From assembly GCA_000992345.1 (NCBI GenBank), contig LBUA01000001.1, positions 13,542-77,541 of the forward strand: DNA of 64,000 nt, read 5' to 3'. Below, in pieces: positions 1 to 58,132 of the stretch. The notes under the pieces are model-generated. The model worked only from the letters and a program-made list of their open reading frames with translations. It ran no database searches and was not told the origin of the DNA. The first letter of the stretch is position 1; each line of letters begins with the position of its first letter. A program made the position numbers and the translations under genes. The DNA is from Parcubacteria group bacterium GW2011_GWD2_38_12. Lineage in GTDB: Bacteria > Patescibacteriota > Minisyncoccia > GWC2-36-17.

Positions 1-25
1 TGCTCGCGCGAATATCAATACGGCC

Positions 26-796
26 ATGTCCAGTATAAATACCCAGAAGCAAGCAATATCCGCGCAAAAATCTACGAATCAAAATAATATTGATGCAGCT
101 AAAGCGCAAATTTCAAGCGCAGAAAGCGCTCTGAATGTCGCAAATTCTCAGCTTGTGTTCAAAAAGGCGCTGCCAAGGAGCGAGGATATTGAAATCGCCA
201 AAGCTCAAGTATCGGAAATAGAAAATCAAATTGCGGCGGTAAGAGAAAAAATACGCAAGGCGACTCTTTCATCTCCCATACCGGCGAAAATTTCTAAAAT
301 CTTTTTTAAGGAAAAAGAATTTTTTAGAACAGGACAATCCGCTGTTTCGCTTATTGCTTTCGATTTTAAAATCCAAGCCGATATTTCGGAATTGGAAATA
401 GGAAAAATCAATGATTCGGACGGTAATAATGTTTCCGTGCAATTTGATGCTTTTGCGGGAGAAATGTTCTCCGGCAAAGTTGTTTCCATTGAACCAAAAG
501 AGGTTTTGAAGGATGGAGATAAATATTATCGTGCGGATATTTATTTTGAAGACAGGGGAATCTCTATTCGTCCGGGTATGAGCGCTGATTTGATGATAAA
601 AATACAATTTAAGGAAAATGTGGTTAAAATTCCAGAAATAGTTGTTTATAAAAAAGACAAGAAAAAATTTGTCATTCTTTCTGAAAATGGCAATCAAAAA
701 GAAACGGAAATTGAGACTGGAATTTCAGATGGGGAATTAATTGAGGTGACAAAAGGACTTTCTGAGGGGCAAATTGTAATTATGTCAATAAAATAA
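26..796 (+). CDS. Efflux transporter periplasmic adaptor (membrane fusion protein, HlyD/MacA-like). Reading frame is open to the window start, so the gene is 5'-truncated.
   Basis: Has the C-terminal beta-barrel/membrane-proximal region typical of MFPs. Followed directly by an ABC ATPase and an FtsX-type permease, giving MacAB-like operon order. Confidence 0.6.
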   Translation: MSSINTQKQAISAQKSTNQNNIDAAKAQISSAESALNVANSQLVFKKALPRSEDIEIAKAQVSEIENQIAAVREKIRKATLSSPIPAKISKIFFKEKEFFRTGQSAVSLIAFDFKIQADISELEIGKINDSDGNNVSVQFDAFAGEMFSGKVVSIEPKEVLKDGDKYYRADIYFEDRGISIRPGMSADLMIKIQFKENVVKIPEIVVYKKDKKKFVILSENGNQKETEIETGISDGELIEVTKGLSEGQIVIMSIK

Positions 797-910
797 AGGT
801 TTTTCGGGACTTCCGGGCTCTTTTTTGAGGCATTAAACCTATATTTCGTTTTTGCTCATCGCCCGTGCTTATTGCAGGCAGGATAAACGAAATAAGCGAG
901 TGATATTTTA

Positions 911-1798
911 ATGAGAAAAACAAGCGTACAAAACAATACAATAAACAATACTGGCGAGGGGATGTTTGATCCGGTTTGCGGGATGAATTTAAAAGGGATT
1001 GATGAATTTAAAAAAAATCAATTAGCGGAAAAGGGATTATTTTTTTGTAGCGATCATTGTAAAAGCCGATTTGAAAAGAACCCGGAAAAATTCCAAAATG
1101 AACCGTTAATCAAACTCAGAAATGTTCAGAAAGTTTTTAATCTGGGCGGAGTGGATACTTATGCGTTAAAAGACCTTGATATTTATATTTGGGAAGGAGA
1201 TTTTGTGGCGATTATAGGCGCTTCAGGATCGGGGAAAAGCACGGCTTTGAATATGATAGGTCTTTTAGACAAACCGACTTCCGGCGACATTTTTTTAAAG
1301 GGGGTTAATATATCCGATTTAAATGATGAAGAAAAAACAAAGTTTCGTTCAGAGACCTTCGGCTTTATTTTTCAGCAATATAATTTAATACCCTGGTTGA
1401 CTGCTTTTGAAAATATTTCATTACCATTGATTTTTTCCGGCAAAGGTATTAATAATAAAAAAATCAATGCGAGTATTGAGGGAATCGGTCTTGGGGGAAG
1501 GTCTTTGCATCGCCCATTTGAGCTTTCCGGAGGCGAACAGCAAAGAGTTGCTTTGCTTCGCGCGCTCGTTAGCGATCCGGATATAATACTTGGCGATGAG
1601 CCGACCGGAAACCTTGATTCCAGCACAGGAAATAAGCTGTTGGATATATTGCTGGATTTGAATAAAAAGGAAGGCAAAACATTGTTAATTGTCACTCATG
1701 ATGCCGATATAGCGGGAAAAGCGGATCAAATCATAACTATGAAAGACGGGAAAGCGATAAAAGACCATCAGGTTTATAAAAAAATATATACAGAGTAA
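911..1798 (+). CDS. ABC transporter ATP-binding protein (MacB/LolD-like) with an N-terminal YHS-like zinc-ribbon metal-binding domain
   Basis: Walker A GASGSGKST, ABC signature LSGGEQQRVALLRAL, Walker B ILGDEPT and H-loop VTHD. N-terminal DPVCGM...FFCSDHCKSRFEKNPEKF matches the YHS domain pattern. Confidence 0.85.
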   Translation: MRKTSVQNNTINNTGEGMFDPVCGMNLKGIDEFKKNQLAEKGLFFCSDHCKSRFEKNPEKFQNEPLIKLRNVQKVFNLGGVDTYALKDLDIYIWEGDFVAIIGASGSGKSTALNMIGLLDKPTSGDIFLKGVNISDLNDEEKTKFRSETFGFIFQQYNLIPWLTAFENISLPLIFSGKGINNKKINASIEGIGLGGRSLHRPFELSGGEQQRVALLRALVSDPDIILGDEPTGNLDSSTGNKLLDILLDLNKKEGKTLLIVTHDADIAGKADQIITMKDGKAIKDHQVYKKIYTE

Positions 1799-1825
1799 AC
1801 GATTTTTAAATCTTAGACGCGTTAT

Positions 1826-3031
1826 ATGCTCAAAAATTTTATAATTTTAATTTTAAAAGGTGTCAGACACAGGCCCATCAGAAGTTGGTTGACTATTTTA
1901 GGGATTATTATCGGAGTGATGCTTGTAATAATGATTCTTTCTTTGAGCGCCGGAGTTCAGAATGCGATTAGCAGTACATTGCAAATGTTCGGTTCAGACT
2001 TGATTATTATTTTTCCCGGCAAGGAAACAAACCCTATTGCCGGAATTTTGGCCGGCCAAAAATTCAAAGAACAGGATATTATGGATCTTGAAAATATTGA
2101 AGGGGTTGATTCTGTGGCTCCGATGACTATCGGGACATTGAATGTTGATTTTAAGGGGGAGAAGAAATCTGTCGCTTTTCATGCTTCTTATTGGGATAAA
2201 ATGAAAAGCATTTTTGAAGAATCGCGTGGCGTGAAATTGGAAATCGGCGCATGGCCGCAGAATGAAGATGCTAACGAAGTGGTCCTTGGGTATTTAGCCG
2301 CAAACAGTCTTTTTAAAAATAAAATTCAGGCAGGAGATGAAATCATTGTTCAATCAAAAAGGTTGAAAGTATCTGGTATTATGGCGCGGCTCGGCATTCA
2401 GGAGGATGATAATTCCATGTATATGTCTTGGAATATGTTTCATAATATTTCCGGATTAAAGCCGGGAGTTATGTCGGCCTTAGTCAGGGTTGTCCCTGGG
2501 GGAAATATCGAGTTTATTGCCCAGCAGATAAGATTTCAGCTTCAGAAACAGGAGGTTGTCCGTGATTTTTCCGTTTTAAGTCCGGAAAAAGCCGGCCGCA
2601 TAGTTGGCGATATATTATCCATAGTGGAATTGGTGTTGCTTCTAATCGCCATGGTTTCTTTGCTTGTTGGCGCGGTTGGGATTATGAATACAATCTATAC
2701 TTCGGTTTTAGAACGTACAAAGCAGATAGGAATCATGAAAGCCATCGGAGCTTCATCAGAAAGTATTCTGATGCTGTTTTTAATAGAGTCGGGAGTTATT
2801 GGTATTATTGGAGGAGTTTTAGGGGTGGTTGTCGGTATTATTTTCGCTTGGATTGCCGGTTTTATAGCTTCGCGTTTTGGGATTAACGGACTTTTTTCTT
2901 TCGCTTCGCTTGATTTTTTTGGATTTTTCGCCATTTTAATTATTACTTTTATAACCGGCATTGTCTCCGGTATTTTGCCGGCGCGCCAAGCGGCAAAGAT
3001 GGAGCCAGCCGAAGCATTAAGATATGAATAA
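1826..3031 (+). CDS. ABC transporter permease, FtsX/MacB-type, with a large periplasmic loop
   Basis: N-terminal TM helix, roughly 200-aa extracytoplasmic domain and a C-terminal FtsX-like 3-TM bundle. Starts 28 nt after the upstream ABC ATPase stop codon. Confidence 0.8.
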   Translation: MLKNFIILILKGVRHRPIRSWLTILGIIIGVMLVIMILSLSAGVQNAISSTLQMFGSDLIIIFPGKETNPIAGILAGQKFKEQDIMDLENIEGVDSVAPMTIGTLNVDFKGEKKSVAFHASYWDKMKSIFEESRGVKLEIGAWPQNEDANEVVLGYLAANSLFKNKIQAGDEIIVQSKRLKVSGIMARLGIQEDDNSMYMSWNMFHNISGLKPGVMSALVRVVPGGNIEFIAQQIRFQLQKQEVVRDFSVLSPEKAGRIVGDILSIVELVLLLIAMVSLLVGAVGIMNTIYTSVLERTKQIGIMKAIGASSESILMLFLIESGVIGIIGGVLGVVVGIIFAWIAGFIASRFGINGLFSFASLDFFGFFAILIITFITGIVSGILPARQAAKMEPAEALRYE

Positions 3032-5165
3032 TAAAATTATGTATACTTGTCCAATGCATTTAGAAATTATCAGAGAGCTTCCCGGAGAATGTCCAAAATG
3101 CGGGATGAAACTTGTTGAGAGTAAAGAGGGTAAGGGGAAGAGTAAAGAGATGGGTTACGAAAGTCGCGCTTTAATCGACAGTGCGCGACACGATTCTGCA
3201 GAATCGCATGCAGGGCATAAGGCCGAAGATTTTTTGAAAAAGTTTTTAGTGAGTTTGGCGTTGACCATACCAGTTTTATTTTATTCTGATGTTATTCAGA
3301 AATTGATTGGTTGGTCACCACCGAGTTTTTACGGGTCGCAATATCTTGCTTTTATTTTAAGCTCTTTTGTGTTTTTTTACGGCGGTTTTATTTTTTTGCG
3401 CGGCGCTTTCTCAGAATTAAAAGCGCGACTTCCCGGAATGATGACTTTGATTACGATTGCAATTTCTGTCGCGTATCTCTATAGCGTATTTACGGTGTTT
3501 TCCGGCAAAGGCGAAAATCTTTTTTGGGAATTGACCACCTTAATCACAATAATGCTGCTTGGCCATTGGATTGAAATGCGAGCGGTTCAAGGCACCGAGA
3601 AAACATTGAAAGAATTGGCAAAACTTTTACCGGATAAAGCAGAGGTGGTAAAGGGCGCGCAAACGGAAATTATTTCGCTCAGCGAATTAAAGTTTGATGA
3701 TATTGTTTTTATAAGGCCCGGAGGGAAAATTCCGGCTGATGGAGCTGTGATAGAGGGAAAATCAGACGTTAATGAATCAATGATTACCGGAGAATCAAAT
3801 CTAGTAGAAAAAACAATCGGTAGCGAAGTAATTGCCGGCACGATAAATAGCGACGGCGTTTTAAAGGTAAAAATTACTAAAATAGGAGAGCAGACTTTTT
3901 TGGCTGGCGTGATGCGCTTAGTATCTAGCGCTCAAACATCAAAATCGCGCTTACAAATATTATCTGATAGAGCCGCATTTTACTTGACTCTTGTGGCTAT
4001 TATTTCCGCAATCACGACATTTTTTTTGTGGTTTTTTATAGGAGGAAATTTGGTTTTTGCCATAGAAAGATTCGTTGTTGTGCTTGTAATTGCCTGCCCC
4101 CACGCTTTGGGACTTGCCATTCCGCTTGTTGCATCAATCTCCACATCGCTTGGCGCAAAAAATGGTTTATTGATCAGACAGCGTCTTGCGCTTGAAGCCG
4201 CTAGAAAAATAGATATTGTTCTATTTGATAAGACCGGCACCTTAACTAAAGGGGAATATGGCGTTGAAGAAATTTTCCCCATAAAAGCCGATCAAGATAC
4301 GATTCTTCATTTGGCGGCATCAATTGACGCTTATTCCGAGCATATGGTGTCAAAAGCCATTGTCAGGAAATTCAAGGAAAAAAATAAAGCGTTTCTTGAG
4401 GTAAAAGACTTCACTAGAGTTCCCGGCAAAGGTGTTAGAGGAATTATAAACAAAGAAGAAGTGTTGGCTGGAGGAGCATCTATTTTGGACGATGAAAAAA
4501 TTATTGTTGCGGAAAATACAAAAAAAATAATTGAAGAAGAAAGTAAAAAAGGCAGAACAATTATTTTTGTTATTAAAAATAAAGAAATTTTAGGGATAAT
4601 ATCGCTTGGCGATGTGGTGCGCGAAGAATCAGAAGAAGCAGTTTTACAACTTCAAAATATGGGCGTGAATGTGGCGATGATTACCGGGGATTCGGAAGAT
4701 GTTGCCAGATGGGTGGCAAAAGATTTGGATATTAGCGAGTATTTTGCGAAAGTTTTGCCTCACGAAAAAGTGGAGAAAGTAAAAATTTTACAATCAAAAG
4801 GCTTTAAGGTGGCGATGGTCGGAGATGGCATTAATGATGCGCCGGCGTTGACCCAGGCAGATTTGGGTATTGCCATTGGCGCCGGGACAAATGTGGCGAT
4901 TGAATCTGCGGGAATTATTTTAGTAAAAAATGACCCTCGCGATATTGTAAAAATAATTAAACTTTCCAAAGCCACTTATCGTAAAATGATACAGAATTTA
5001 TTCTGGGCGACTGGATACAATATTGTGGCTTTGCCATTAGCAGCCGGTATTTTGGCATCAAAAGGGATATTGCTTCAGCCAGCATTAGCGGCATTATTTA
5101 TGTCGGCAAGCACCATTATTGTCGCCGTGAATGCAATGTTTTTGCGACGATCAAAATTTGATTAG
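3024..5165 (+). CDS. Heavy-metal (copper) translocating P1B-type ATPase with an N-terminal CxxC...CxxC zinc-ribbon metal-binding domain
   Basis: DKTGTLT phosphorylation motif, TGES, GDGINDAPAL, membrane CPH motif (IACPHALGLA), and N-terminal YTCPMH...GECPKCGM ribbon. CPH instead of CPC suggests the CopB-like P1B-3 subgroup. Confidence 0.9.
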   Translation: MNNKIMYTCPMHLEIIRELPGECPKCGMKLVESKEGKGKSKEMGYESRALIDSARHDSAESHAGHKAEDFLKKFLVSLALTIPVLFYSDVIQKLIGWSPPSFYGSQYLAFILSSFVFFYGGFIFLRGAFSELKARLPGMMTLITIAISVAYLYSVFTVFSGKGENLFWELTTLITIMLLGHWIEMRAVQGTEKTLKELAKLLPDKAEVVKGAQTEIISLSELKFDDIVFIRPGGKIPADGAVIEGKSDVNESMITGESNLVEKTIGSEVIAGTINSDGVLKVKITKIGEQTFLAGVMRLVSSAQTSKSRLQILSDRAAFYLTLVAIISAITTFFLWFFIGGNLVFAIERFVVVLVIACPHALGLAIPLVASISTSLGAKNGLLIRQRLALEAARKIDIVLFDKTGTLTKGEYGVEEIFPIKADQDTILHLAASIDAYSEHMVSKAIVRKFKEKNKAFLEVKDFTRVPGKGVRGIINKEEVLAGGASILDDEKIIVAENTKKIIEEESKKGRTIIFVIKNKEILGIISLGDVVREESEEAVLQLQNMGVNVAMITGDSEDVARWVAKDLDISEYFAKVLPHEKVEKVKILQSKGFKVAMVGDGINDAPALTQADLGIAIGAGTNVAIESAGIILVKNDPRDIVKIIKLSKATYRKMIQNLFWATGYNIVALPLAAGILASKGILLQPALAALFMSASTIIVAVNAMFLRRSKFD

Positions 5166-5770: not shown

Positions 5771-6091
5771 TAATTTAGTTTATATGGTATAAAAACCGCA
5801 TAAATAAGCGGATTTTAGGCGGTTTTAGTCTCTTTAGCTATTGACTTTTTCGGGACGTTATGCTAAGATTGTTTTTACGCCATTGATTTTCAGTGGTGTT
5901 TTATTTTGCCTAGCGGAAAGTTTAATTATCGAGAAATAATTTTGAATAAAGTTTGTAATTTATTTGAAATTTATGCGAGGTCCAGCTGATATTTTCGACG
6001 GATTCTTTTTTAAGAATAAGTTGAGGATTAGGCGCTTATCCATAAAATCGAGATTAATGAAGGATAAGTTTGTTTTTGTGACAAATCTAAT

Positions 6092-6691: not shown

Positions 6692-7051
6692 TTATATTGT
6701 TGTTTGTATTGATGTTTCTTCGGTCAGTAGTTTATAAAGCGCAAGACCTGCCAAGAAATCAACAGCAACAAACATAACGTCCGTAAGGCCAGTCATGATT
6801 GCCACTGCAATGCCAGCATCGGTTTTCATGAAAAAATGATATAGGCCGGCAACGGCAAGTAAGGTGTTTAGATAAAATCCATACTCAATTGTTTGTTTTC
6901 TTGCCATGAGGATCGTCACAATTACGGCATCAAATAAAGTCACCCACATCAGCCAGCTGATTTGGGGATGTAATTTGCCATGAAGGAGCGTGGCGGCCGC
7001 AGGCATTAGAAAAAGTATGGCGAGCAATGAATATTGGATAAGTTTGTTCAT
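6692..7051 (-). CDS. DoxX-family small membrane protein
   Basis: About 119 aa with 4 TM helices and DoxX-like composition. Confidence 0.5.
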   Translation of the reverse strand: MNKLIQYSLLAILFLMPAAATLLHGKLHPQISWLMWVTLFDAVIVTILMARKQTIEYGFYLNTLLAVAGLYHFFMKTDAGIAVAIMTGLTDVMFVAVDFLAGLALYKLLTEETSIQTTI

Positions 7052-7198
7052 TTCTATTTTATTGGTTAATTATAAATATGACGACCTTTAATATATCAAA
7101 TAATGATGAATATAATAAATTATTCATTAATATTAATACATCGGTTATGGGTTATGCAATAGTTAAAAATGTGGCCGTTAGTTAAGGACTTTATTATT

Positions 7199-7276
7199 CC
7201 CCGCAATATAAGAAGGATATGTTGTGTTATCCTTCTTATATTGCGGGGTTTGACAATTTTGAGAAAAGAGTATAAT
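7199..7276. promoter_or_regulatory. Perfect 20-bp-arm inverted repeat directly abutting a near-consensus sigma70-like promoter (TTGACA-15-TATAAT)
   Basis: ccccgcaatataagaaggat / atccttcttatattgcgggg with a 10-nt loop. Followed by tttgacaattttgagaaaagagtataat. Confidence 0.5.
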
Positions 7277-7406
7277 ATAGTAATAATTTAAGTTGGGCAG
7301 ATGATTCTCGGAAAGAGTGGCATTGGTCCAGCGAATGAAAAGGTCGTTGTTAGATTACGATATAAAATTTGATAGTTTTAAAGCTATTAAATTTTAAGCT
7401 AAGAAC

Positions 7407-7715
7407 ATGACAGCAAAAACAGTTGATCAAGAATTTCTTGAATATCTTATCAAATCGATTGTTACCCATCCTGAAGAGGTGAAGGTTGACAGGAAGGTTG
7501 ACGAAATGGGAGTTTTATTAACTCTCAAGGTTAACAAAGAAGACATGGGAACTATTATTGGGCGTGGTGGAGATACTGCAAAAGCCATCAGGAGTTTGGT
7601 GAGAATTGTTGGTTTAAAAAATAATGCCAGAGTTAATTTAAAGATTGAAGAGCCGGAAGGCGGCACTGGCGGTAATTCAAAAAGATCTGCCGATATTGGA
7701 GATCTAGACCTTTAG
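7407..7715 (+). CDS. KH-domain RNA-binding protein (KhpA/YlqC-like, UPF0109)
   Basis: GXXG KH motif [15 protein letters not shown]. Located immediately upstream of trmD, as in the rpsP-khpA-rimM-trmD cluster. Confidence 0.75.
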
Positions 7716-7730
7716 TTTTTCACAAAATAC

Positions 7731-7762
7731 AAAACCCCTCATTTTGAGGGGTTTTGTATTTT
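7731..7762 (+). terminator. Rho-independent terminator
   Basis: aaaacccctc-atttt-gaggggtttt hairpin followed by a T-run. Confidence 0.75.
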
Positions 7763-7779
7763 GTGTTAATGTAAAATTA

Positions 7780-8436
7780 ATGATCAAATTTGATATAATA
7801 ACAATCTTCCCCGAAATTTTCAGCTCGTATTTTGGTAAATCCATTTTAAAGCGCGCGCAGGAGAATGAGTTGATAAAAATCGGCGTTCACGATTTGCGTA
7901 AATTTTCCATTGACAAACACAAAAAAGTGGATGACAAAGCATATGGCGGAGGACCGGGGATGGTGCTCAAAATTGAACCAATTGTTAGAGCAATTGGTTC
8001 AATTTTGAAGTTAAAAGTTAAAAGTAAAAAGTTAAAAGTAAAAAGCAGAGTTATATTATTTTCTACTCGGGGGAAAAAATTCAACAATAAAATTGCCGAA
8101 AAATTGGTAAAATATGATCAATTGATTTTAATTTGCGGTAGATATGAAGGGGTGGACGAGAGGGTAGCCAAATATATTGCCGATGAGGAAATATCCATTG
8201 GAGAGTATGTTTTGACTGGCGGTGAAATTCCGGCGATGGTTTTGGTGGATGCGGTTAGTCGCCATATTCCCGGAGTTTTAGGCAAGCAAGAATCATTAGA
8301 GGAAATAAAGGGATCGTATCCGGTTTATACGCGTCCAGAAGTTTTTGAGATGAGAAATAAAAATTTGCGCGTGCCGAAAGTTTTATTATCCGGCGATCAT
8401 AAAAAAATAGAAGAATGGAGGGAGAAATTTCACTAA
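7780..8436 (+). CDS. trmD: tRNA (guanine37-N1)-methyltransferase TrmD, carrying a Lys-rich insertion from an AAAGTTA heptamer repeat
   Basis: [13 protein letters not shown]-terminus, [16 protein letters not shown] and [11 protein letters not shown] motifs. The annotated ORF start at 7744 overlaps the upstream terminator, so the start is placed at Met 7780. Confidence 0.9.
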
Positions 8437-12079: not shown

Positions 12080-14637
12080 AAATCTCATATAATTGGTTAA
12101 AAGATTTCGTGAACCTAAAAAGATATTCGGCTCCAGAGCTAGCGGATTTATTGACCATGAACTTTGCGGAAGTCGATGGGATTAAAACGCTTGGCGATGA
12201 TTTGATTTTTGATTTGAAAATTTTACCAGATAGAGCTTCGGATTGCCTGTCGCATTATGGAGTGGCGCGTGAGTTAGCTGCGCTAACAAAGTTAAAAGTT
12301 AAAAGTTTAAAGTTTAAAGTTAAAGAAAGTAAAAAAATAAATATAAAAGATTTGATAGAAGTTGAAAATCAAAATCCGGAGATTTGTAAAAGATATATTT
12401 CGCGAGTAATTTTGGATGTTAAGGTCGGGGCTTCTCCGAAATGGTTGAAAGAGAGACTTGAATCATTGGGTCAAAAATCTATAAATAATGTAGTGGACGC
12501 GACAAATTATGTGATGTTGGAACTGGGGCAACCGATGCATATTTTTGATTTTGATAAAATCAAAAATATGCAAGTTAAAAGTGAAAAGTCCATGCCTACC
12601 GGCAGGCAGGTAAAAGCGCAAAGTGAAATTTCAAAAATTATAATCCGAAAAGCAAAAGTCGGAGAAAAGATAACAACCCTAGATAATCAAGAAATAGAAC
12701 TAAATGAAGATGTTCTTGTAATTGTCGGCTCTGATACTCCAAACTCCAAACTCCAAACTCCAAGCTCTATTCTGGCAATTGCTGGCATAAAAGGCGGAAA
12801 GAAAGCGGAAATAGATCAAAATACCAAAAATATTATTTTGGAATCAGCGAATTTCAGCGCAGAGGCAATACGCAAAGCTTCAAAACTGACTGGAATAAGA
12901 ACAGAGTCTTCTGCCAGGTTTTCCGCTGATTTAGATCCTAATCTAGCGGGTATTGCTATTGAAAGATTGGCATCTTTATTGGTTCAAATTGCTGGAGGGG
13001 AAGCAGTTAGCGGGAAAATAGACATTTATCCACGCAAGGTTATGAGTGCGAAAGTTGCTGTTTCTTTGAATGACGTTATAAGTTTATTGGGAGAGAAAAT
13101 ATCCGAAAAAGAATTTTTGAGTATTTTTAAACAGCTAAACTTTAAGGTAGAAAAGATTTATCAAGAGAAAGAATTAATGAAATTGGCAAGGAAATTTATT
13201 GGCAGGCCATACAAATATGGGGCAAGCACAAGTCAAGATGCTCCCGAAACATTTGATTGCTCCAGTTTTGTTCAATATTTATATTGGCAAATTGGCATTG
13301 AGATTCCCAGAATTTCAGTTGAGCAGTTTTTATTTGCGCGTTCCATTGAAAAGAAAGATTTGAAAATTGGCGATCTGGCTTTTAGAAAAGGAGGAAGGCC
13401 ATATTTCTATAAAGAAACTCCAAGGGGTATTGGACATGTGGGGGTTTATATCGGGAAAGGCAGGGTTGTCCATGCATCCGGAGACAAAAAGAAAGTAATC
13501 GAAGAAAAATTAGAAACATTTTGCAAGAAAGACTTTCGCGGATTTGGAAGAATAGCTGATTTAGGGGATGAGGCTTTTGTCATCGAAATCCCCACATATA
13601 GGAGAGATATCAGAATGAAAGCTGATATTATTGAAGAGATTGGCCGGATTTACGGTTATCAAAATATAAAATCAAAATTGCCTGAAGGTATTCTGATGCT
13701 GCCTCAAAGAAATGATGAGATTTTTTGGGAAAATTTATCAAAAAACGCTTTAGTATCCACTGGATTTACTGAAGTTTATAACTACTCTTTTATCGGTGGA
13801 AAAGATTTAAAGGCGGGTTTTATTATTCCTGAAAATATTTTAGAACTTCAAAATTATATTAGCGATGACAAAAGATATTTGCGACCAAGCTTGATTTTTG
13901 GTTTTCTAAGAAATATCGAAGAAAATTTCAGGTATTTTAATGAGACGCGCATATTTGAAGTTGGCAAAATTTTCACCCTTAATGCAAAAGAAAAAATTTC
14001 TGAGAGAAAGTTTATTGGCGGGGCCATTTCCCTTAAAGGGAAAAGAAATAGCGCAAAAGCTGAGGAATTTTATGAATTAAAAGCCACCGTTGATTTATTG
14101 ATGCAGAAATTGGGTGTGCCGGAATTTTGGTATGATGATTATCAGGCCACGCCCGAGATCATTGAAGGAAAAATTTGGCACCATTTGCGTTTAGCGGAAA
14201 TTAAAATAGGTGACGAGAGAGTCGGATTTATTGGAGAAATAAATCCGAATGTCATTGGAAATTATGATATAGACGGAAGAGTGGCGATGTTTGAAATTGA
14301 TTTTGAAAAATTAGCGTGTCTCGCTAACGAAGATTTTATTTATAGTCCTATATCAAAATTCCCAGCCATAGAAAGAGATTTGGCGATACTTACTCCCATT
14401 AATGTGAAAGTTGATGATGTTTTAAATGTCCTGGAAAATATAGGCGGCCAGTTGCTCATAAATACGGATTTATTTGATGTTTATGAAGGCGATAATATTC
14501 AGGAGGGTAAAAAGAGTTTGGCCTTCCATTTGATATTCCAGTCGCGGGAAAGAACTTTATCCGATAAGGAAGTGGATGAAATTTTAGCCGAAATAATCGT
14601 TGCTTTATCCGAGGAGGGTTGGGAAATTAGAAGATAG
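12076..14637 (+). CDS. pheT: Phenylalanine--tRNA ligase beta subunit that lacks the N-terminal OB (B2) domain and carries an inserted NlpC/P60 domain plus two heptamer-repeat insertions
   Basis: MKISYNWLKDFV N-terminus, B3/4, a B5 motif pair (FKVEKI ... IPTYRRDIRMKADIIEEIGRIYGYQNI) and an FDX-ACB C-terminus. The NlpC/P60 block (RPYKYG, FDCSSFVQY, GHVGVYIG, VHAS) is embedded inside B5. Confidence 0.9.
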   Translation: MKISYNWLKDFVNLKRYSAPELADLLTMNFAEVDGIKTLGDDLIFDLKILPDRASDCLSHYGVARELAALTKLKVKSLKFKVKESKKINIKDLIEVENQNPEICKRYISRVILDVKVGASPKWLKERLESLGQKSINNVVDATNYVMLELGQPMHIFDFDKIKNMQVKSEKSMPTGRQVKAQSEISKIIIRKAKVGEKITTLDNQEIELNEDVLVIVGSDTPNSKLQTPSSILAIAGIKGGKKAEIDQNTKNIILESANFSAEAIRKASKLTGIRTESSARFSADLDPNLAGIAIERLASLLVQIAGGEAVSGKIDIYPRKVMSAKVAVSLNDVISLLGEKISEKEFLSIFKQLNFKVEKIYQEKELMKLARKFIGRPYKYGASTSQDAPETFDCSSFVQYLYWQIGIEIPRISVEQFLFARSIEKKDLKIGDLAFRKGGRPYFYKETPRGIGHVGVYIGKGRVVHASGDKKKVIEEKLETFCKKDFRGFGRIADLGDEAFVIEIPTYRRDIRMKADIIEEIGRIYGYQNIKSKLPEGILMLPQRNDEIFWENLSKNALVSTGFTEVYNYSFIGGKDLKAGFIIPENILELQNYISDDKRYLRPSLIFGFLRNIEENFRYFNETRIFEVGKIFTLNAKEKISERKFIGGAISLKGKRNSAKAEEFYELKATVDLLMQKLGVPEFWYDDYQATPEIIEGKIWHHLRLAEIKIGDERVGFIGEINPNVIGNYDIDGRVAMFEIDFEKLACLANEDFIYSPISKFPAIERDLAILTPINVKVDDVLNVLENIGGQLLINTDLFDVYEGDNIQEGKKSLAFHLIFQSRERTLSDKEVDEILAEIIVALSEEGWEIRR

Positions 14638-14671
14638 TGATTATTTATATAATTAGATATAAATTTCAAGT

Positions 14672-14702
14672 AAAAATCCCGCTTAACTAAGCGGGATTTT
14701 TA
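14672..14702 (+). terminator. Rho-independent terminator after pheT
   Basis: aaaaatcccgcttaactaagcgggattttt. Confidence 0.8.
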
Positions 14703-14854
14703 CTTATTTTTAGGGTTGTATAAATGTTTAAAATTTGATATAATTTGATTATAAAACAAGTTGAAAAAACGCTTTTTAGTCCGCTTTATAAGCGGATTTC
14801 TAATTGATATTAGGCTTAAATTGCAGAATTGTATTTTGTAATTTAAGGCAGTAA

Positions 14855-16999
<2,145 letters not shown>

Positions 17000-49916: not shown

Positions 49917-49987
49917 TGCGGGATCGTCTAATGGTAGGACTCCGCCCTTTGAAGGCGGCTATCTTGGTTCGAATCCAGGTCCCGCAG
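49917..49987 (+). tRNA. tRNA-Gln (anticodon UUG), CCA not encoded
   Basis: Manual cloverleaf: acceptor TGCGGGA/TCCCGCA (U1-A72, G73 discriminator as in bacterial tRNA-Gln), D-arm GTCT-AATGGTA-GGAC, anticodon arm CCGCC-CTTTGAA-GGCGG, T-arm CTTGG-TTCGAAT-CCAGG. Confidence 0.85.
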
Positions 49988-50049
49988 CACGAGTCAGTGC
50001 GTTATTGAGAGACCGAGAAGGCTATATTTTAAGTTATTAATTATATCTA

Positions 50050-50484
50050 ATGCAAAATTACAAAGACAAAATAATTGAATTTATAAGATTATTTTTGTTA
50101 TCGTTGTTTATAATATTTGTTTTATTAATTTTACCAATACTAATAGAAACTATTTTAAGATTATATTTGGAAAGTAGAACAATTGGCGTATTAATAACAT
50201 CTATTTATTTAATTACTTTTCTATATATTTTATATTATAAAAAAAGAGACAAGAGTAAGACATTTCTAGAAAATTTTTATTTGTTTACAAATTCCATAAG
50301 AAAATCTATAAAAGAAATAATTAGTTTTATTACAAAAATTCCTCACTTTTTTAAATTAACAGGAAATTCTATTATCAAAATAGTAGGTTACATTTTTGTT
50401 GCGGCATTGATAATAATCCCAATATTTATAGTCATAATAATTATGTTAGCCATTATAAAATGGTCTTTTCAAATAGTGTTTTAG
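50050..50484 (+). CDS. Hypothetical membrane protein (AT-rich islet downstream of tRNA-Gln)
   Basis: ORF with 4 TM helices. Very AT-rich codon usage compared with neighbouring housekeeping genes. Confidence 0.35.
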   Translation: MQNYKDKIIEFIRLFLLSLFIIFVLLILPILIETILRLYLESRTIGVLITSIYLITFLYILYYKKRDKSKTFLENFYLFTNSIRKSIKEIISFITKIPHFFKLTGNSIIKIVGYIFVAALIIIPIFIVIIIMLAIIKWSFQIVF

Positions 50485-50508
50485 TTTTTAATCTATTAAA
50501 ATAAGATT

Positions 50509-51111
50509 TTGTTAGTAAATAATTGTTTAGATAAAATATTTATGGAAGATCAAATAATTAAAATATCTGAAGATATAACTTCTATTGCTGATAGCACTAA
50601 TCAAATTCAATCTTATATTAAAATCATCTTACAACGCCATTGGTGGGATACTCAATGGTTTTCTTCGTTATTTGGTGTTATTTTGGGCACTATAATAACA
50701 TTATCGATTGGATGGATGAAAGATTATTTACAATGGAGAAAGAAAATTTTATTGAGTTGGTATAAAAAATTGATAAAAGGCCCAAATTTAGATGATCTAA
50801 TATATCAAGCGCTTCATATTAGTTATGCTTATGGTGGAAAAGATACAAATGACAAATCCTTATCAGAAAAAGTTTTAATTGAGTTTCGTAAAAAATATAA
50901 GCATTGGAATCTTCCATTATTATCAAGACTTCGGTTTTTATTTATAAAATGTGAGAAGTTTATTAAAAAATTACCAAATAAAAATAATGCACAGTATGAA
51001 GAATTTAAGAAAAGTGATGAATATAAAATATTAAATAAAATTTTTAATAAAATTATTTTTATTTCCGAAAAGAGCACCGGAGAAAATCGATGGACATTAA
51101 TTAATGATTAA
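50509..51111 (+). CDS. Hypothetical protein (AT-rich islet)
   Basis: ORF only. One central TM helix. Confidence 0.35.
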   Translation: MLVNNCLDKIFMEDQIIKISEDITSIADSTNQIQSYIKIILQRHWWDTQWFSSLFGVILGTIITLSIGWMKDYLQWRKKILLSWYKKLIKGPNLDDLIYQALHISYAYGGKDTNDKSLSEKVLIEFRKKYKHWNLPLLSRLRFLFIKCEKFIKKLPNKNNAQYEEFKKSDEYKILNKIFNKIIFISEKSTGENRWTLIND

Positions 51112-51265
51112 AATAATTAAATATTTAATTTATAGCTACCACCGCGACCCGACCGAGACGGGTTATTGTGGTATAATAAAAACAGTCAAAAAAGCTCTCA
51201 ACGGTCTCGCTAGTTTTGGTTCTAGACCGGAGTAGCTAGCCAACAAAGATAAGTTGGAAAGACTG

Positions 51266-51299
51266 CCTCGCGGATAGATATCCGCGAGGTTTTTGTTTT
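51266..51299 (+). terminator. Rho-independent terminator (plus orientation) ending a roughly 110-nt possible small transcript
   Basis: cctcgcgga-tagata-tccgcgagg followed by tttttgttttg. Confidence 0.7.
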
Positions 51300-51306
51300 G
51301 TAGGCA

Positions 51307-52017
51307 TTATAGAAGTGATAAAAATTCTTCCAGTTCTTTTCCGATAATTGGCCTTATTTTATTAGGTTTGAGATTACCAAGGCGTATGTTCATAATGCGA
51401 ATTCTTTTTAGATCTGCGACTGCATACCCAAGCGCTCCGCACATTCTTCTGATTTGATGTTTTTTGCCTTCCGTCAGGATTATTCTAAAAGTAAAGTTAT
51501 TGATGCGACTAATTTTGCATTTCTTTGTTCTATAACCATCAATATTCACACCCTCGCTCATGCGTTTGAAAAAACTCGGCTTCAAGGGAGTTCTAACATT
51601 TACGATATATTCTTTTTCGTGATTATATTCAGGACTCAAGAGTTTTTCGGTGATGCGACCATCGTCCGTGAGGATTATTAATCCCTCAGAATCTTTATCA
51701 AGGCGACCCATAGGGAAAATATGTGTATTTAACAAAAAATCGCGAATGCTTTTTTCGTTCATTTGCGGGCTGTGAGTAATAACGCCGCGAGGCTTATTAT
51801 AGGCGATATAAGAATATTTTCTATTCGCTATATCTCTTGGTATTTTTACATCATCTCCTTCGTTGACCATATCGCCAAGCACGGCAATTTTACCATTTAT
51901 AAATACATTTTTTCTTCTAATCAGATCATCAGCCCCTCTGCGGGTCGCGAGGTTATGTAGAGCCAGATATTTATTTATCCTTATTGGATAGGATATTGAT
52001 TTTGAATTTTTAAGCAT
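51307..52017 (-). CDS. rRNA pseudouridine synthase, RsuA/RluB family (S4 domain plus catalytic domain)
   Basis: N-terminal S4 (IRINKYLALHNLATRRGADDLI), catalytic motif GRLDKDSEGLIILTDDG, and C-terminal KxYxV region. Confidence 0.85.
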   Translation of the reverse strand: MLKNSKSISYPIRINKYLALHNLATRRGADDLIRRKNVFINGKIAVLGDMVNEGDDVKIPRDIANRKYSYIAYNKPRGVITHSPQMNEKSIRDFLLNTHIFPMGRLDKDSEGLIILTDDGRITEKLLSPEYNHEKEYIVNVRTPLKPSFFKRMSEGVNIDGYRTKKCKISRINNFTFRIILTEGKKHQIRRMCGALGYAVADLKRIRIMNIRLGNLKPNKIRPIIGKELEEFLSLL

Positions 52018-55816: not shown

Positions 55817-56170
55817 ATGGGAAAAATATTGTCAATAAATCACAAGCTTGGTAAAGCGGATATATCTTTAGATGATGTTTTGATTAGGCTTTTTATTAAG
55901 TATTATAATGGCACATGCTCTGAAATAAGAATATGGAAGCTACCATTAAAAAGAAGTTTTTGGAGCATGTTTAATGTTAAAAATTTAATTTGGGCTATTT
56001 ATAATGACGACGCTAAATATATTCATGGTTGGTTTTCAAGAGATGGTGATATTCTGGAAGTTTTAACAAGGAAGATTGAAAAATGTAATAATTATAATGA
56101 TCTTAAAGAATTGCTTATTAAATTAGAGAATATTATAAATGGAATTTCTTTACCACATGATGAGTTATAA
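55817..56170 (+). CDS. Hypothetical small protein (orphan cassette gene 2)
   Basis: ORF only. Confidence 0.3.
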   Translation: MGKILSINHKLGKADISLDDVLIRLFIKYYNGTCSEIRIWKLPLKRSFWSMFNVKNLIWAIYNDDAKYIHGWFSRDGDILEVLTRKIEKCNNYNDLKELLIKLENIINGISLPHDEL

Positions 56171-56191
56171 AATTTTTTAAATTAGCGAAAT

Positions 56192-56407
56192 ATGAAAAAT
56201 ATAATTATTATTTTAATAATTTTAGTAGCCGCCATCGGTAGCGGATTGTTTTATTGGTATGAGTATAGACCGAATAAAATAAGAAGTTATTGCAATGATA
56301 AGGCACAAGATACTTTAACCGGCTCACTTCGAGAATTTGTAGCGGTTCAAGCCAACTATGAAGATAATTATAAAAAATGTTTAAGAGGTAATGGAATAAG
56401 AGAGTAA
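56192..56407 (+). CDS. Hypothetical small signal-anchored protein with two Cys (orphan cassette gene 3)
   Basis: N-terminal TM/signal helix. Confidence 0.3.
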   Translation: MKNIIIILIILVAAIGSGLFYWYEYRPNKIRSYCNDKAQDTLTGSLREFVAVQANYEDNYKKCLRGNGIRE

Positions 56408-56423
56408 GTTAAATAAAATTTTT

Positions 56424-56747
56424 ATGGGAAATTTAACAGATGCTTTAAAAAAATATAATGGAAATTCGTTGCCAGAAGATATAATTAAGGGGTTGCAAGA
56501 TGGTGGTTATACTCATGGATTAAATCCGGCGACAGAGGAACCGATTTTTCAAAACTATTTAACTGCTTTATTAAACTCAAAAACTAATAAAGAATTGTCT
56601 GTATCTTTAAATAATTTTAAGGATGTGATAAAAGAATTCTCGCTTTCAAGTTTTGAGTCAACAAAAGCATTGAATCTTTGGACAATGGTATTGGCGTTTG
56701 CCACAACAGCATTAGTATTTGTGACAATCGTAGCGATATTTTATTAA
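56424..56747 (+). CDS. Hypothetical C-tail-anchored small protein (orphan cassette gene 4)
   Basis: C-terminal TM helix. Confidence 0.3.
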   Translation: MGNLTDALKKYNGNSLPEDIIKGLQDGGYTHGLNPATEEPIFQNYLTALLNSKTNKELSVSLNNFKDVIKEFSLSSFESTKALNLWTMVLAFATTALVFVTIVAIFY

Positions 56748-56754
56748 GAGTAAA

Positions 56755-57129
56755 TTGTTTGAAAATATGAATTTTACTGAAGCAAACAAAATTTTTAAAA
56801 TTTGGAGTGAATGGTATTGGCCATCTCACTTTATACTGCATTCAGTTTTTCTCAATAAAATACCGGAATCTTTTTTGCCATATCAAAAAAATGTTTTAGA
56901 GGAGGCACTAAATATTATAGCAAAGCAATATTATGACAATGGCGATTTTAAGGTCTCCAAAAATATCCAAGAATCTATCGCGTCTCTTGCGGCTTATGTA
57001 AGAGATGATGATGCCTTACAGCAAGTGTCTGACAGATTATCTGATGTTAAGATGAGAGAGGCTGTACTTATTTATATTTCAAATTTTAAAAAAGATTGGA
57101 AAAATTGGTTAGACAAACAAGAGGATTAA
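56755..57129 (+). CDS. Hypothetical small protein, Trp-rich N-terminus (orphan cassette gene 5)
   Basis: ORF only. Confidence 0.3.
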   Translation: MFENMNFTEANKIFKIWSEWYWPSHFILHSVFLNKIPESFLPYQKNVLEEALNIIAKQYYDNGDFKVSKNIQESIASLAAYVRDDDALQQVSDRLSDVKMREAVLIYISNFKKDWKNWLDKQED

Positions 57130-57217
57130 AAAGAAAGGCATATGTCTCATAAGTCAAGATAAAATAAACCTTTTTAAAATTTTTTAACAAAATTTAATTG
57201 CTTGAGATAGTTGTATT

Positions 57218-57598
57218 TTGGATAATATGAATAATAAATCAGAGGAAATTATTAAAAAATCAATTGAACAAGCAATTATTAACGCTGTTAGTAAAAAAAT
57301 ATATCCACCACAGCAACCAGGCTTTTTAGGCAGATTTTTAAAAAAATCGCCAGGAAAATACATAGACCTAAATATCGAAGAAGATAAGAGTGGTTGCAAT
57401 AAGATAATATTTAAATTAGAAAATTATAAAAATCCAGTTAGTATCGATCTTGAAAAGATTTTTGAAGGAATATTTTGGACAGAATTTTTCGATGCTGATA
57501 AGTATACAGAAGTCAGTGAATACGTTGATAAATTTGAAAAATTAAATACATGGGATGAAAAAGCAAACTTTTTAAGCCAATGTTTAAAAAGTTTTTAA
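57218..57598 (+). CDS. Hypothetical small protein (orphan cassette gene 6)
   Basis: ORF only. Confidence 0.3.
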   Translation: MDNMNNKSEEIIKKSIEQAIINAVSKKIYPPQQPGFLGRFLKKSPGKYIDLNIEEDKSGCNKIIFKLENYKNPVSIDLEKIFEGIFWTEFFDADKYTEVSEYVDKFEKLNTWDEKANFLSQCLKSF

Positions 57599-57604
57599 TT
57601 CGGT

Positions 57605-58132
57605 ATGCATTCAAAAGAAAACAATTTTGCGTATATTGATGGGGCGAATTTACATAATGGCATTGCCGGTTTGGGTTGGAAGCTGGATTATAAAAGATTT
57701 AGAGTGTGGCTGTCTGATAAATACGGCATAAAAAGCGCCTATATTTTTATTGGTTTAATACCGAAATATAAAGATTTATATAAATATCTCCAAGAATGCG
57801 GATTTACCTTGATATTCAAAGAGGTGGTGTATAACAGCGATGGGAAACCAAAAGGGAATTGTGATGCGGATTTAGTTTTGCAATCAGTATGCGATGCGTA
57901 TAAAAATAAATTTGATAAAGCAATTATCGTTTCGAGTGATGGCGATTATGCCGGACTGGTTAAATTTCTTAAGGAACGCGGAAAATTAAAAACAATACTG
58001 TCGCCTCATACTAAAAATCTCTGCTCTATTCTTCTAAAAAGGACGAATGCGCCGATTGCTTATTTGAATGATCAAAAAACAATTTTACGGGATAAAAAAG
58101 AAAAAGCCCCCGATGCGGACAAAACCGCATAG
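57605..58132 (+). CDS. NYN-domain (LabA-like, PIN-related) predicted ribonuclease
   Basis: NFAYIDGANLHNG ... CDADLVL ... IVSSDGDYAGLV, which are the hallmark Asp residues of the NYN/LabA fold. Confidence 0.75.
   Translation: MHSKENNFAYIDGANLHNGIAGLGWKLDYKRFRVWLSDKYGIKSAYIFIGLIPKYKDLYKYLQECGFTLIFKEVVYNSDGKPKGNCDADLVLQSVCDAYKNKFDKAIIVSSDGDYAGLVKFLKERGKLKTILSPHTKNLCSILLKRTNAPIAYLNDQKTILRDKKEKAPDADKTA

Follow-up and report, generated by a model that had tools for sequence, protein, structure and literature searches.

A YHS metal-binding domain fused to the ATPase of a MacAB-type pump in the Candidate Phyla Radiation: a candidate copper-responsive transporter next to a CopB-like ATPase

Background

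In the MacB family of ATP-binding cassette (ABC) transporters, dimerisation of the nucleotide-binding domains (NBDs) drives movements of the domains outside the membrane, and there is no transmembrane substrate path (PMC8277102). Here we describe a member of this family from Parcubacteria group bacterium GW2011_GWD2_38_12 (contig LBUA01000001.1), an organism of the Candidate Phyla Radiation (CPR, or Patescibacteria), in which the ATPase subunit carries an N-terminal YHS metal-binding domain and the pump genes adjoin that of a CopB-like P1B-type ATPase. The analysis covered a stretch of 64,000 nt (the window), together with a matching contig (L001) that reaches further upstream and homologous loci elsewhere. 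MacB-family pumps are regulated by transcription or by partner kinases (BceAB-BceS), and we know of none whose ATPase subunit contains a sensor for a metal or small molecule. At roughly even odds (about 50%), we read the system as a copper-gated MacAB-type pump, in which a cytoplasmic YHS domain would sense copper on the NBD and act together with the CopB-type ATPase.

The MacAB(-TolC) pumps of E. coli, A. actinomycetemcomitans and Acinetobacter are matched by the permease, the NBD and the membrane fusion protein (MFP) of the window, and mechanotransmission is presumably shared. In MacB, however, NBD and permease are fused, whereas here they are separate polypeptides; none of the solved MacB-family NBDs has the N-terminal YHS domain present here; MacA has ∼370 residues against 548 in the MFP of this locus, with the extra ∼180–200 residues lying between the lipoyl halves; and MacAB uses TolC, whereas a CPR cell should have no such partner in an outer membrane. 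MFP-dependent MacB pumps without an outer-membrane factor are established in Gram-positive bacteria, namely YknWXYZ of Bacillus and Spr0693-0695 of S. pneumoniae (PMC8277102), so that a tripartite ABC exporter in a monoderm-like cell, which an initial annotation of the window made from sequence alone had considered notable, is not so in itself. Both belong to single-membrane hosts and have separate NBD, permease and MFP as here, and Spr0694 (5xu1) is among the best matches of the NBD, but both are without a YHS domain and guard against antimicrobial peptides or the SDP toxin. We know of no association of either with a P1B ATPase.

The nearest functional precedent for the YHS domain is a class IIIc adenylyl cyclase of M. 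phlei, in which YHS lies 8 residues from the catalytic domain, the enzyme is activated by 1–10 µM copper, and one Asp and three Cys are the proposed copper ligands (Linder 2015, PMC4626032). The short link to a nucleotide-using domain and the Asp plus three Cys are matched here, although in the cyclase YHS is C-terminal and Cu2+ was used, whereas here it is N-terminal and its partner is an ABC NBD. In Acidobacteriota, Planctomycetota, Nitrospirota and others, YHS and HMBD domains occur with a P1B core in cis on one ATPase; in the window the HMBD is on the ATPase and the YHS on the adjacent ABC NBD. The membrane motifs of that ATPase (CPH, GYN(X)4P, MSXST) are those of CopB/P1B-3 enzymes (CopB of A. 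fulgidus and E. hirae; CopB/CopX of S. aureus), but in place of the classical poly-His N-terminus it has an HMBD ribbon and a modest His stretch. CusCFBA is a functional analogue only, being a second pump with an adaptor that clears extracytoplasmic copper after P1B export, but one of the resistance-nodulation-division type with Met-cluster copper sites, none of which is conserved in the CPR pump. Lastly, the metal-related fetABCDEF cluster of C. jejuni encodes an ABC transporter, two thioredoxins and a membrane protein with YHS (PMC10783030); its gene content resembles the CPR island described below, but there a separate membrane protein bears the YHS, for which a periplasmic location is predicted, and the setting is iron uptake.

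The YHS domain and its fusion to the ABC ATPase

Within the 295-residue fusion protein, Pfam places a YHS domain (PF04945) at residues 20–63 with 32.8 bits (cut-off 30.3; E = 6.9e-8), spanning profile positions 3–45 of 47, and ABC_tran at residues 86–232. The YHS model was matched independently by 35 of 41 homologues, with a best E-value of 3e-11, the remaining six having truncated N-termini; in the few database homologues without a Pfam YHS call the N-terminus was shortened by start-codon choice and the full domain is present in the DNA (e.g. L017). The putative ligands are D20, C23, C46 and C50, together with M25. Their spacing, C23-x22-C46-x3-C50, fits the Cys triad of the TRASH motif, C-x(19-22)-C-x3-C, with an Asp ahead of the first Cys, and C23, M25, C46 and C50 are invariant in 30–31 of 31 orthologues, with D20 invariant or nearly so. 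Searched by sequence against the PDB, the YHS segment gave no match at E ≤ 1, and a fold search with the model of the whole fusion protein aligned the NBD only.

The initial annotation had proposed this YHS domain, a MacB/LolD-like NBD with an FtsX-type permease and an MFP, and a downstream CPH-type ATPase with a Cys ribbon, and the profile and motif searches reported here bear out each of these assignments. The ribbon, which had been presented as the ATPase's own, is present but not peculiar to it, as it corresponds to the described HMBD domain PF19335.

A mis-assembly, missed stop codon or frameshift that joins a stand-alone YHS gene to an ABC gene could produce such a protein, and an ORF-calling artefact had been a caveat of the annotation, but this now appears extremely improbable. 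Positions 911–1798 form one open reading frame (ORF) with no internal stop between YHS and NBD, an identical protein is found on contigs of several independent groundwater assemblies (PRJNA268031 and others), and in tblastn searches residues 20–295 align as one unbroken segment in 30 other loci; on these grounds an assembly or ORF-calling artefact was rejected. The junction sequence itself, NPEKFQGEPLIKL, is also highly conserved. Translation starts at ATG 911 or at ATG 962 (M18), and residues 1–19 are not conserved and were modelled with low confidence.

The AlphaFold model of the fusion protein has a predicted local distance difference test score (pLDDT) of 86 and a predicted template modelling score of 0.84, and residues 51–70, which span the YHS–NBD junction, reach a pLDDT of ∼95. 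These values suggest that the YHS domain is rigidly joined to the first beta-strand of the NBD, in place of a loose tether. The invariant A-loop aromatic, F76, lies ∼13 residues past the YHS domain. Since the Walker A, Walker B, signature and H-switch motifs are all invariant across the family, the NBD should be an active ATPase. Of 31 sequences, 29 keep H286 of the C-terminal tail and 21 keep H289. No signal peptide or transmembrane (TM) segment was found in the fusion protein, whose YHS is attached to an NBD, and the domain is predicted to be cytoplasmic.

Distribution of the fusion

The phylogenetic distribution of the fusion, which the initial annotation had proposed to determine, was surveyed at several scales. 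A scan of one genome for each of 185,579 species, using a pattern over the YHS-to-NBD junction built from five close sequences, returned 15 junction-spanning loci, 11 from named CPR lineages and 4 labelled ‘bacterium’ only, and 65 further matches that cover the YHS part alone; a metagenome scan added 22 junction-spanning loci. In a search of 5.8 billion proteins the best 120 matches listed, besides the window's own 100% cluster, were 59–68% identical, nearly all carried both PF04945 and PF00005, and those with named sources came from Nealsonbacteria, Magasanikbacteria, Harrisonbacteria, Wolfebacteria and ‘Patescibacteria group’. When the N-terminal 108 residues served as query in an exhaustive HMMER search of 1.84 billion cluster representatives, 9 of the best 150 matches listed had the YHS triad ∼80 residues ahead of Walker A, and the more divergent named ones among these are from Candidatus Uhrbacteria, also CPR. 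The fusion is real and has so far been seen in CPR/Patescibacteria only, to which every named source belongs.

The 65 loci matched by YHS alone present a different picture. No ABC NBD lies downstream of YHS in any of them, whereas in 29 a P1B ATPase core follows directly, and in 21 of these the alignment reaches the HMBD ribbon, in agreement with the expectation that YHS normally accompanies copper ATPases. The fusion is therefore best understood as a lineage-specific rearrangement: elsewhere the usual architecture is YHS-HMBD-P1B, while in CPR loci the HMBD (or an HMA domain) is on the ATPase and the YHS on the NBD of the neighbouring pump. The nearest YHS relatives of the fusion are those of copper ATPases, at 40–48% identity.

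In a different reading YHS would leave the ABC pump unregulated and instead buffer Cu(I) close to the membrane or donate it to the P1B ATPase next door, or tether pump and ATPase into one efflux platform; this is the hand-off of the initial annotation with the P-type pump as recipient. Since the nearest YHS domains outside the CPR sit in cis on a P1B ATPase with HMBD, and the P1B N-termini inspected in CPR fusion loci are all without YHS, the function may have moved to the neighbour. The YHS-ABC triad (MFP, YHS-ABC and permease genes) and the P1B gene are adjacent in many loci, overlapping by 8 nt in the window, and small CopZ-like HMA proteins were seen in two loci only (L010, L101). A rigid and highly conserved junction, however, is unlike a mobile chaperone arm, and together with the neighbourhood evidence given below it leads us to consider this chaperone or docking role unlikely.

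Full-text literature searches returned no description of a YHS-ABC fusion, and in a C. glutamicum copper-stimulon paper the only FtsX mentioned is that of cell division. Both domains have been picked up by automated pipelines, one homologue being called ‘ABC-type lipoprotein export system ATPase subunit/YHS domain-containing protein’ by JGI. Pump, copper ATPase and the two small metal-binding domains are individually familiar; their combination is new and apparently lineage-specific. A few genomes outside the CPR (L026, L077, L083) also have unfused MacB-type genes in the vicinity of YHS-P1B genes, but these are too few to beat chance in large genomes and were not used as evidence.

The MacB-type pump

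NCBIfam models place the NBD nearest LolD, DarD and MacB, under every equivalog cut-off, that of MacB included. An identity as LolD was rejected (TIGR02211, 221.3 bits against 307.75; NF008639, 206.7 against 360), and the permease likewise falls short of the LolC/E equivalog (78.6 bits; cut-off 362.45). Some public records (e.g. P0035) name members ‘lipoprotein-releasing system ATP-binding protein LolD’, a label that is unjustified as neither the LolD nor the LolC/E cut-off is reached; the family is thus mis-named in those records, and a Lol pathway is not expected in CPR cells. The PDB matches of the NBD (MJ0796, S. pneumoniae Spr0694, MacB, LolD and YbbA) all start at query residue 61–67 or later, and identity to the solved MacB NBDs is 39–43%.

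In the permease, Pfam recognises MacB_PCD at residues 20–236 (E = 1.5e-27) and FtsX at residues 273–394 (E = 1.7e-18), and the protein aligns end to end with solved MacB (5nik, 5lil, 5gko; E = 2.5e-32), having an extracytoplasmic core domain and an FtsX-type C-terminal TM domain, in keeping with the type VII permease plan of four TM helices with a large extracytoplasmic core between TM1 and TM2. The MFP, called at 26–796, is in truth the C-terminal 265 codons of a 548-residue protein whose full gene lies at 8240–9886 of L001. It matches HlyD_3, HlyD_D23 and YknX_C in Pfam and RND_mfp in NCBIfam, with MacA (4dk0/4dk1) as its best solved relatives. The lipoyl halves occupy residues 62–91 and 372 onward, leaving ∼280 residues between them (92–371), and MacA residues 76–352 align to MFP residues 272–546 only; the extra length therefore falls in the hairpin region, and we infer a membrane-anchored adaptor with a very long predicted helical hairpin. 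Compared with most homologues the MFP of the window has two 18-residue insertions, at residues 149–166 and 298–315 (the second at about 44–97 of the window), at symmetrical positions of the long helical region, as would be expected if both arms of a coiled-coil hairpin had lengthened together.

Taken together, these assignments identify the system as a MacAB-type, type VII ABC transporter with separate NBD and permease, as in the Gram-positive members. Among the recurrent neighbour families there is no TolC-like outer-membrane factor, a search that did not extend to whole genomes. In one marine sediment locus (L104) tandem permease genes (2516–3718 and 3767–4966; 62% and 61% identical to that of the window) sit between the YHS-ABC gene and the gene of a CPH-type ATPase, which suggests a heterodimeric permease as in LolCE.

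Conserved Met/His/Cys clusters, which would point to direct handling of metal, were sought in the extracytoplasmic domain of the permease and in the MFP, and none were found; H119 is the sole conserved Met/His/Cys position in that permease domain, and the stretch ‘MYMSWNMFH’ of the window is not conserved. All three subunits are highly conserved across CPR classes (55–68% identity for the permease, 53–65% for the NBD), and the nearest solved relatives handle peptides, lipoproteins or heme. These observations would fit a structural zinc ribbon that stabilises or dimerises the NBD of a general envelope pump, a conserved CPR system of housekeeping or defence that exports peptides, lipids or damaged membrane parts (cf. 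YknWXYZ, Spr0693-0695, HrtBA and YbbAP), the proximity of metal genes then reflecting a general envelope-stress island, and the treble-clef family DUF2116 does give a weak overlapping match. By its profile scores the segment is nevertheless a YHS domain rather than a generic zinc ribbon, its Asp, three Cys and Met pattern is typical of copper-associated YHS domains, and its nearest relatives are those of copper ATPases, so that we regard this explanation as rather unlikely, if a little less so than a chaperone or docking role.

The CopB-like ATPase

The 713-residue P-type ATPase scores over the cut-offs of the heavy-metal and copper P1B models of NCBIfam (TIGR01525, 581 bits; TIGR01511, 574 bits), and Pfam finds HMBD (PF19335) at residues 7–32 (42.7 bits, cut-off 23.6; E = 5.3e-11), E1-E2_ATPase and Hydrolase. 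Its motifs comprise CPH (residues 358–360), GYNIVALP (664–671), MSAST (693–697) and DKTGT, and it thereby shows the membrane signature of the P1B-3/CopB subgroup, CPH in TM6, GYN(X)4P in TM7 and MSXST in TM8 (PMC5552934). At the N-terminus the HMBD Cys ribbon is the main module, with His confined to the short HDSAESHAGH (3 His), compared with a classical P1B-3 His domain of 30–100 residues; among the P1B relatives, that of L019 has a His-rich N-terminus and that of L016 an HMBD. The best solved relatives are CopA of A. fulgidus and L. pneumophila and the ATP-binding domain of CopB (3skx; E = 4.6e-78). Older literature assigned Cu2+ to the P1B-3 subgroup (PMC5552934). On its profile and motif matches the window ATPase is predicted to export copper. 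According to Purohit, in 2018, CopB is reportedly Cu+-specific.

Automated calls start the ATPase 5–10 residues after ATG 3024 (703 or 708 instead of 713 residues; 12144 instead of 12114 in L001), and on the main contigs the later start drops the first Cys-Pro of the ribbon (window 3024–3053, L001 12114–12143). The upstream start at ATG 3024 is supported by the Pfam HMBD match, which spans residues 7–32.

Gene order and metal-related neighbours

All 31 non-redundant fusion loci keep the collinear order MFP, YHS-ABC, permease, and the MFP gene is directly upstream in every fusion locus whose contig extends upstream of the ABC gene. When the ORFs flanking 34 fusion loci were all clustered without prior assumptions, the most frequent neighbour family after the triad was that of P-type ATPases (18 loci). 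Among the 24 non-redundant loci whose flanks extend over 4 kb or more (315 kb in total), heavy-metal P1B ATPases occur in the flank of 15 and within 2.5 kb in 11, giving 19 genes in these 315 kb. A CPR genome of ∼1 Mb has one to few P1B genes, and on this assumed background density the enrichment near the triad is tens-fold.

By their TM4 motif the neighbouring enzymes fall into CPH (L001, L016, L019, L104), CPC with HMA (L010, L013, L089, L097, L108), CPD with HMBD (L013, L018, L097, L101, L102) and TPCP types (L008, L012), while those of L009 and L011 are P2-type, non-heavy-metal pumps. P1B genes stand around the triad in nine or more arrangements (on its upstream or downstream side, on the opposite strand, in two copies), a variety that argues against simple inheritance of one ancestral operon. 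CsoR-type repressors (7 loci), DsbD_TM (7), DsbD_2 (4), AhpC/redoxin (8) and thioredoxin-like proteins (4) also recur, as do DUF3105 and DUF1573. With P1B neighbours of four subtypes, CsoR and thiol-redox genes all recurring, the link of the triad to metal homeostasis is well supported by gene context, and the view of the locus as a metal module that the initial annotation had taken is upheld in CPR relatives. The same diversity bears on a chaperone or docking role of YHS, as four P1B subtypes with differing N-terminal metal domains argue against a specific docking partner.

Several minor observations concern these neighbours. A cassette of the order unk142, DsbD_TM, AhpC/redoxin, unk179, unk341 recurs (L010 at ∼1–3371, L021 from 6824 to the contig end, L102 at ∼12100–16000, and L016 and L101), and its members without a Pfam match have Cys/His motifs: RPCCxNxxxFPDCNHGMAM and a C-terminal GGGCG in unk341, HGHGC in unk142 and a C-terminal DCC in unk179. 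It may be an Scs-like extracytoplasmic copper/thiol system. Second P1B ATPases with the CPD motif (L013 18177–20171, L018 1188–3416, L097 18022–20174, L101 17592–19784, L102 4389–6548) have the HMBD ribbon at the N-terminus in L018, L101 and L102 and a Cys-rich N-terminus in L013 and L097; CPD has been reported as a rare rhizobial subtype only (PMC5552934) but appears to be common in CPR. Finally, P-type ATPases with TPCP, which we take to be P1B-5-like, are encoded on the strand opposite to the triad, 2–5.5 kb downstream of it (L008 14307–16088, L012 17593–19344, both on the minus strand).

A candidate mechanism and its alternatives

In the copper-gated pump that we favour, the CopB-type ATPase would export copper from the cytoplasm, while the YHS domain would bind cytoplasmic Cu(I) through D20, C23, C46 and C50 and so allosterically turn on ATP binding or hydrolysis at the NBD; a metal-dependent ordering near F76 could plausibly affect ATP binding. 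The MacB/MFP machine would then work mechanically outside the membrane only at high copper, ridding the membrane surface and the wall zone of copper, or of molecules that carry copper or have been damaged by it. The proposal builds on the domain composition, ligand conservation, gene order and copper/thiol-redox gene enrichment, which were established directly; copper as the ligand, activation over inhibition, and the substrate of the pump are parts that we infer.

A sensor is favoured over a chaperone hand-off because of the MacB mechanism, the lack of conserved external ligands, and the predicted cytoplasmic position of a YHS domain with invariant ligands. Dedicated copper pumps such as Cus have external Met/His/Cys copper sites, and passing metal on to the ABC exporter itself would be at odds both with the way in which MacB-type pumps work and with the missing external ligands. 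Of the two roles that had initially been suggested for YHS, metal sensing thus fits best, whereas delivery to the exporter is unlikely. Through its YHS domain the pump is probably responsive to copper.

Several observations weigh against copper gating. The YHS score of the window protein is just 2.5 bits over the Pfam cut-off, and the placement of YHS relative to the ATP site is deduced from sequence spacing only. The P1B enrichment depends on an assumed background density, the loci are not phylogenetically independent, and 9 of the 24 loci have no P1B ATPase in the surveyed flank, which counts for a structural zinc ribbon and against a chaperone or docking role as well. CsoR, DsbD, redoxin and cassette genes were sought across the 64 kb of the window and none were found, the window being a minimal version of the copper/thiol-redox island. 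The unusual conservation of the triad across CPR classes would also fit a metal-unrelated housekeeping function. Lastly, lipid-related neighbours recur (6 loci with CMAS, 4 with ICMT/PEMT and 5 with a lycopene-cyclase-like domain), as a general envelope pump with a zinc ribbon would have it; they could point to a substrate of lipid nature or to stress-related remodelling of the membrane. The enrichment of P1B and CsoR genes in many arrangements, on the other hand, is hard to explain by such a pump without a metal link. The CMAS genes (cyclopropane-fatty-acyl-phospholipid synthase; L013, L018, L089, L096, L097, L101) are often directly upstream of the MFP gene; ICMT/PEMT genes were found in L098, L101, L102 and L108, and the lycopene-cyclase-like domain in L013, L016, L019, L089 and L102.

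If YHS does gate ATP hydrolysis, the copper-gated pump would provide a simple and testable case of direct metal control over a mechanotransmission ABC machine, and would show how ultra-small, single-membrane CPR bacteria, whose transport physiology is barely known, shield their envelope from copper. A more far-reaching version, which we consider doubtful, is that this is the first ligand-gated type VII machine, working in series with the P1B ATPase and perhaps coupled to it for a two-step clearance of copper, with the ∼280-residue hairpin of the adaptor as a conduit through the wall or S-layer. Such a two-step system would be a functional counterpart of CopA plus CusCBA assembled from unrelated parts. 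The family also marks a recurrent copper/thiol-redox island in Parcubacteria-type genomes, which includes several conserved, uncharacterised proteins rich in Cys and His.

Layout of the locus

The window opens with the end of the MFP gene, followed by the YHS-ABC, permease and P-type ATPase genes, four collinear genes on the plus strand (Table 1). The gap between the YHS-ABC and permease genes is 27 nt, the ATPase gene overlaps the end of the permease gene by 8 nt, and the gap between the ATPase and YdjM-like genes is 50 nt. Terminator-like hairpins in this region were found only after the MFP and YdjM-like genes, and they are weak evidence, such sites being no more numerous than expected from shuffled sequence. 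The YHS-ABC, permease, ATPase and YdjM-like genes probably form one transcript, judging from their spacing and orientation, and the hairpin at 5877–5899 is a possible end of the transcription unit. It is uncertain whether the YdjM-like protein belongs to the module, a homologue being found near the triad in just two other loci (L103, L105).

Table 1. Features at the start of the window (positions in nt; aa, amino acid residues).
Feature	Position	Strand	Basis or remark
MFP, C-terminal 265 codons	2–796	+	Frame open from base 2; gene cut by window edge
Weak terminator-like hairpin and T-run, just past MFP stop	803–817	+	Consensus scan only
YHS-ABC fusion protein, 295 aa, predicted ATPase subunit of MacB-type pump	911–1798	+	Single ORF
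YHS/TRASH metal-binding domain, aa 20–63	968–1099	+	Pfam PF04945
MacB/LolD-type NBD (aa 66–284) and conserved C-terminal tail DHQVYKKIYTE	1106–1795	+	Motifs, PDB matches
NBD Walker A	1217–1240	+	
NBD signature (LSGGE)	1523–1537	+	
NBD Walker B (ILGDE)	1586–1600	+	
MacB-type permease, 401 aa	1826–3031	+	Pfam MacB_PCD and FtsX
P1B-3 (CopB-like, CPH-type) P-type ATPase, 713 aa	3024–5165	+	NCBIfam models, motifs
HMBD Cys ribbon CPMH-x12-CPKCGM, ATPase N-terminus	3042–3119	+	Pfam PF19335
Modest His-containing stretch HDSAESHAGH (aa 56–65) after HMBD	3189–3218	+	
ATPase CPH	4095–4103	+	
ATPase DKTGT	4227–4241	+	
ATPase GYNIVALP	5013–5036	+	
ATPase MSAST	5100–5114	+	
YdjM-like membrane protein, 184 aa	5216–5770	+	Pfam YdjM 28.2 bits, under cut-off 29
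Terminator-like hairpin, 10 pairs, and T-run, past YdjM-like gene	5877–5899	+	Consensus scan only

The spacer between the MFP and YHS-ABC genes, 115 nt, is unusually long compared with ∼40–60 nt in many other loci, and contains a 15-nt inverted repeat with 87% complementarity (842–856 and 880–894). Checked for a structured RNA or an operator, it folds no better than shuffled sequences (z = −0.53) and has no Rfam match. Further upstream, on L001, a gene for an unusual fusion of DUF192 and Peptidase_C39_2 directly precedes the MFP gene (6981–8150, plus strand), and a VIT1-family (Fe/Mn) transporter gene lies ∼4 kb upstream of it (3477–4010, minus strand).

Across the 64 kb a single RNA gene was found, that of a tRNA (49917–49987). 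GC content falls to 0.29 right after it (50001–52000) and again at 56001–58000, against ∼0.36–0.40 elsewhere in the window, and these low-GC stretches may represent an integrated element. GC skew is positive in all 2-kb bins, and nearly all large genes of the first 10 kb are on the plus strand, which is consistent with a position within one replichore with strong strand bias.

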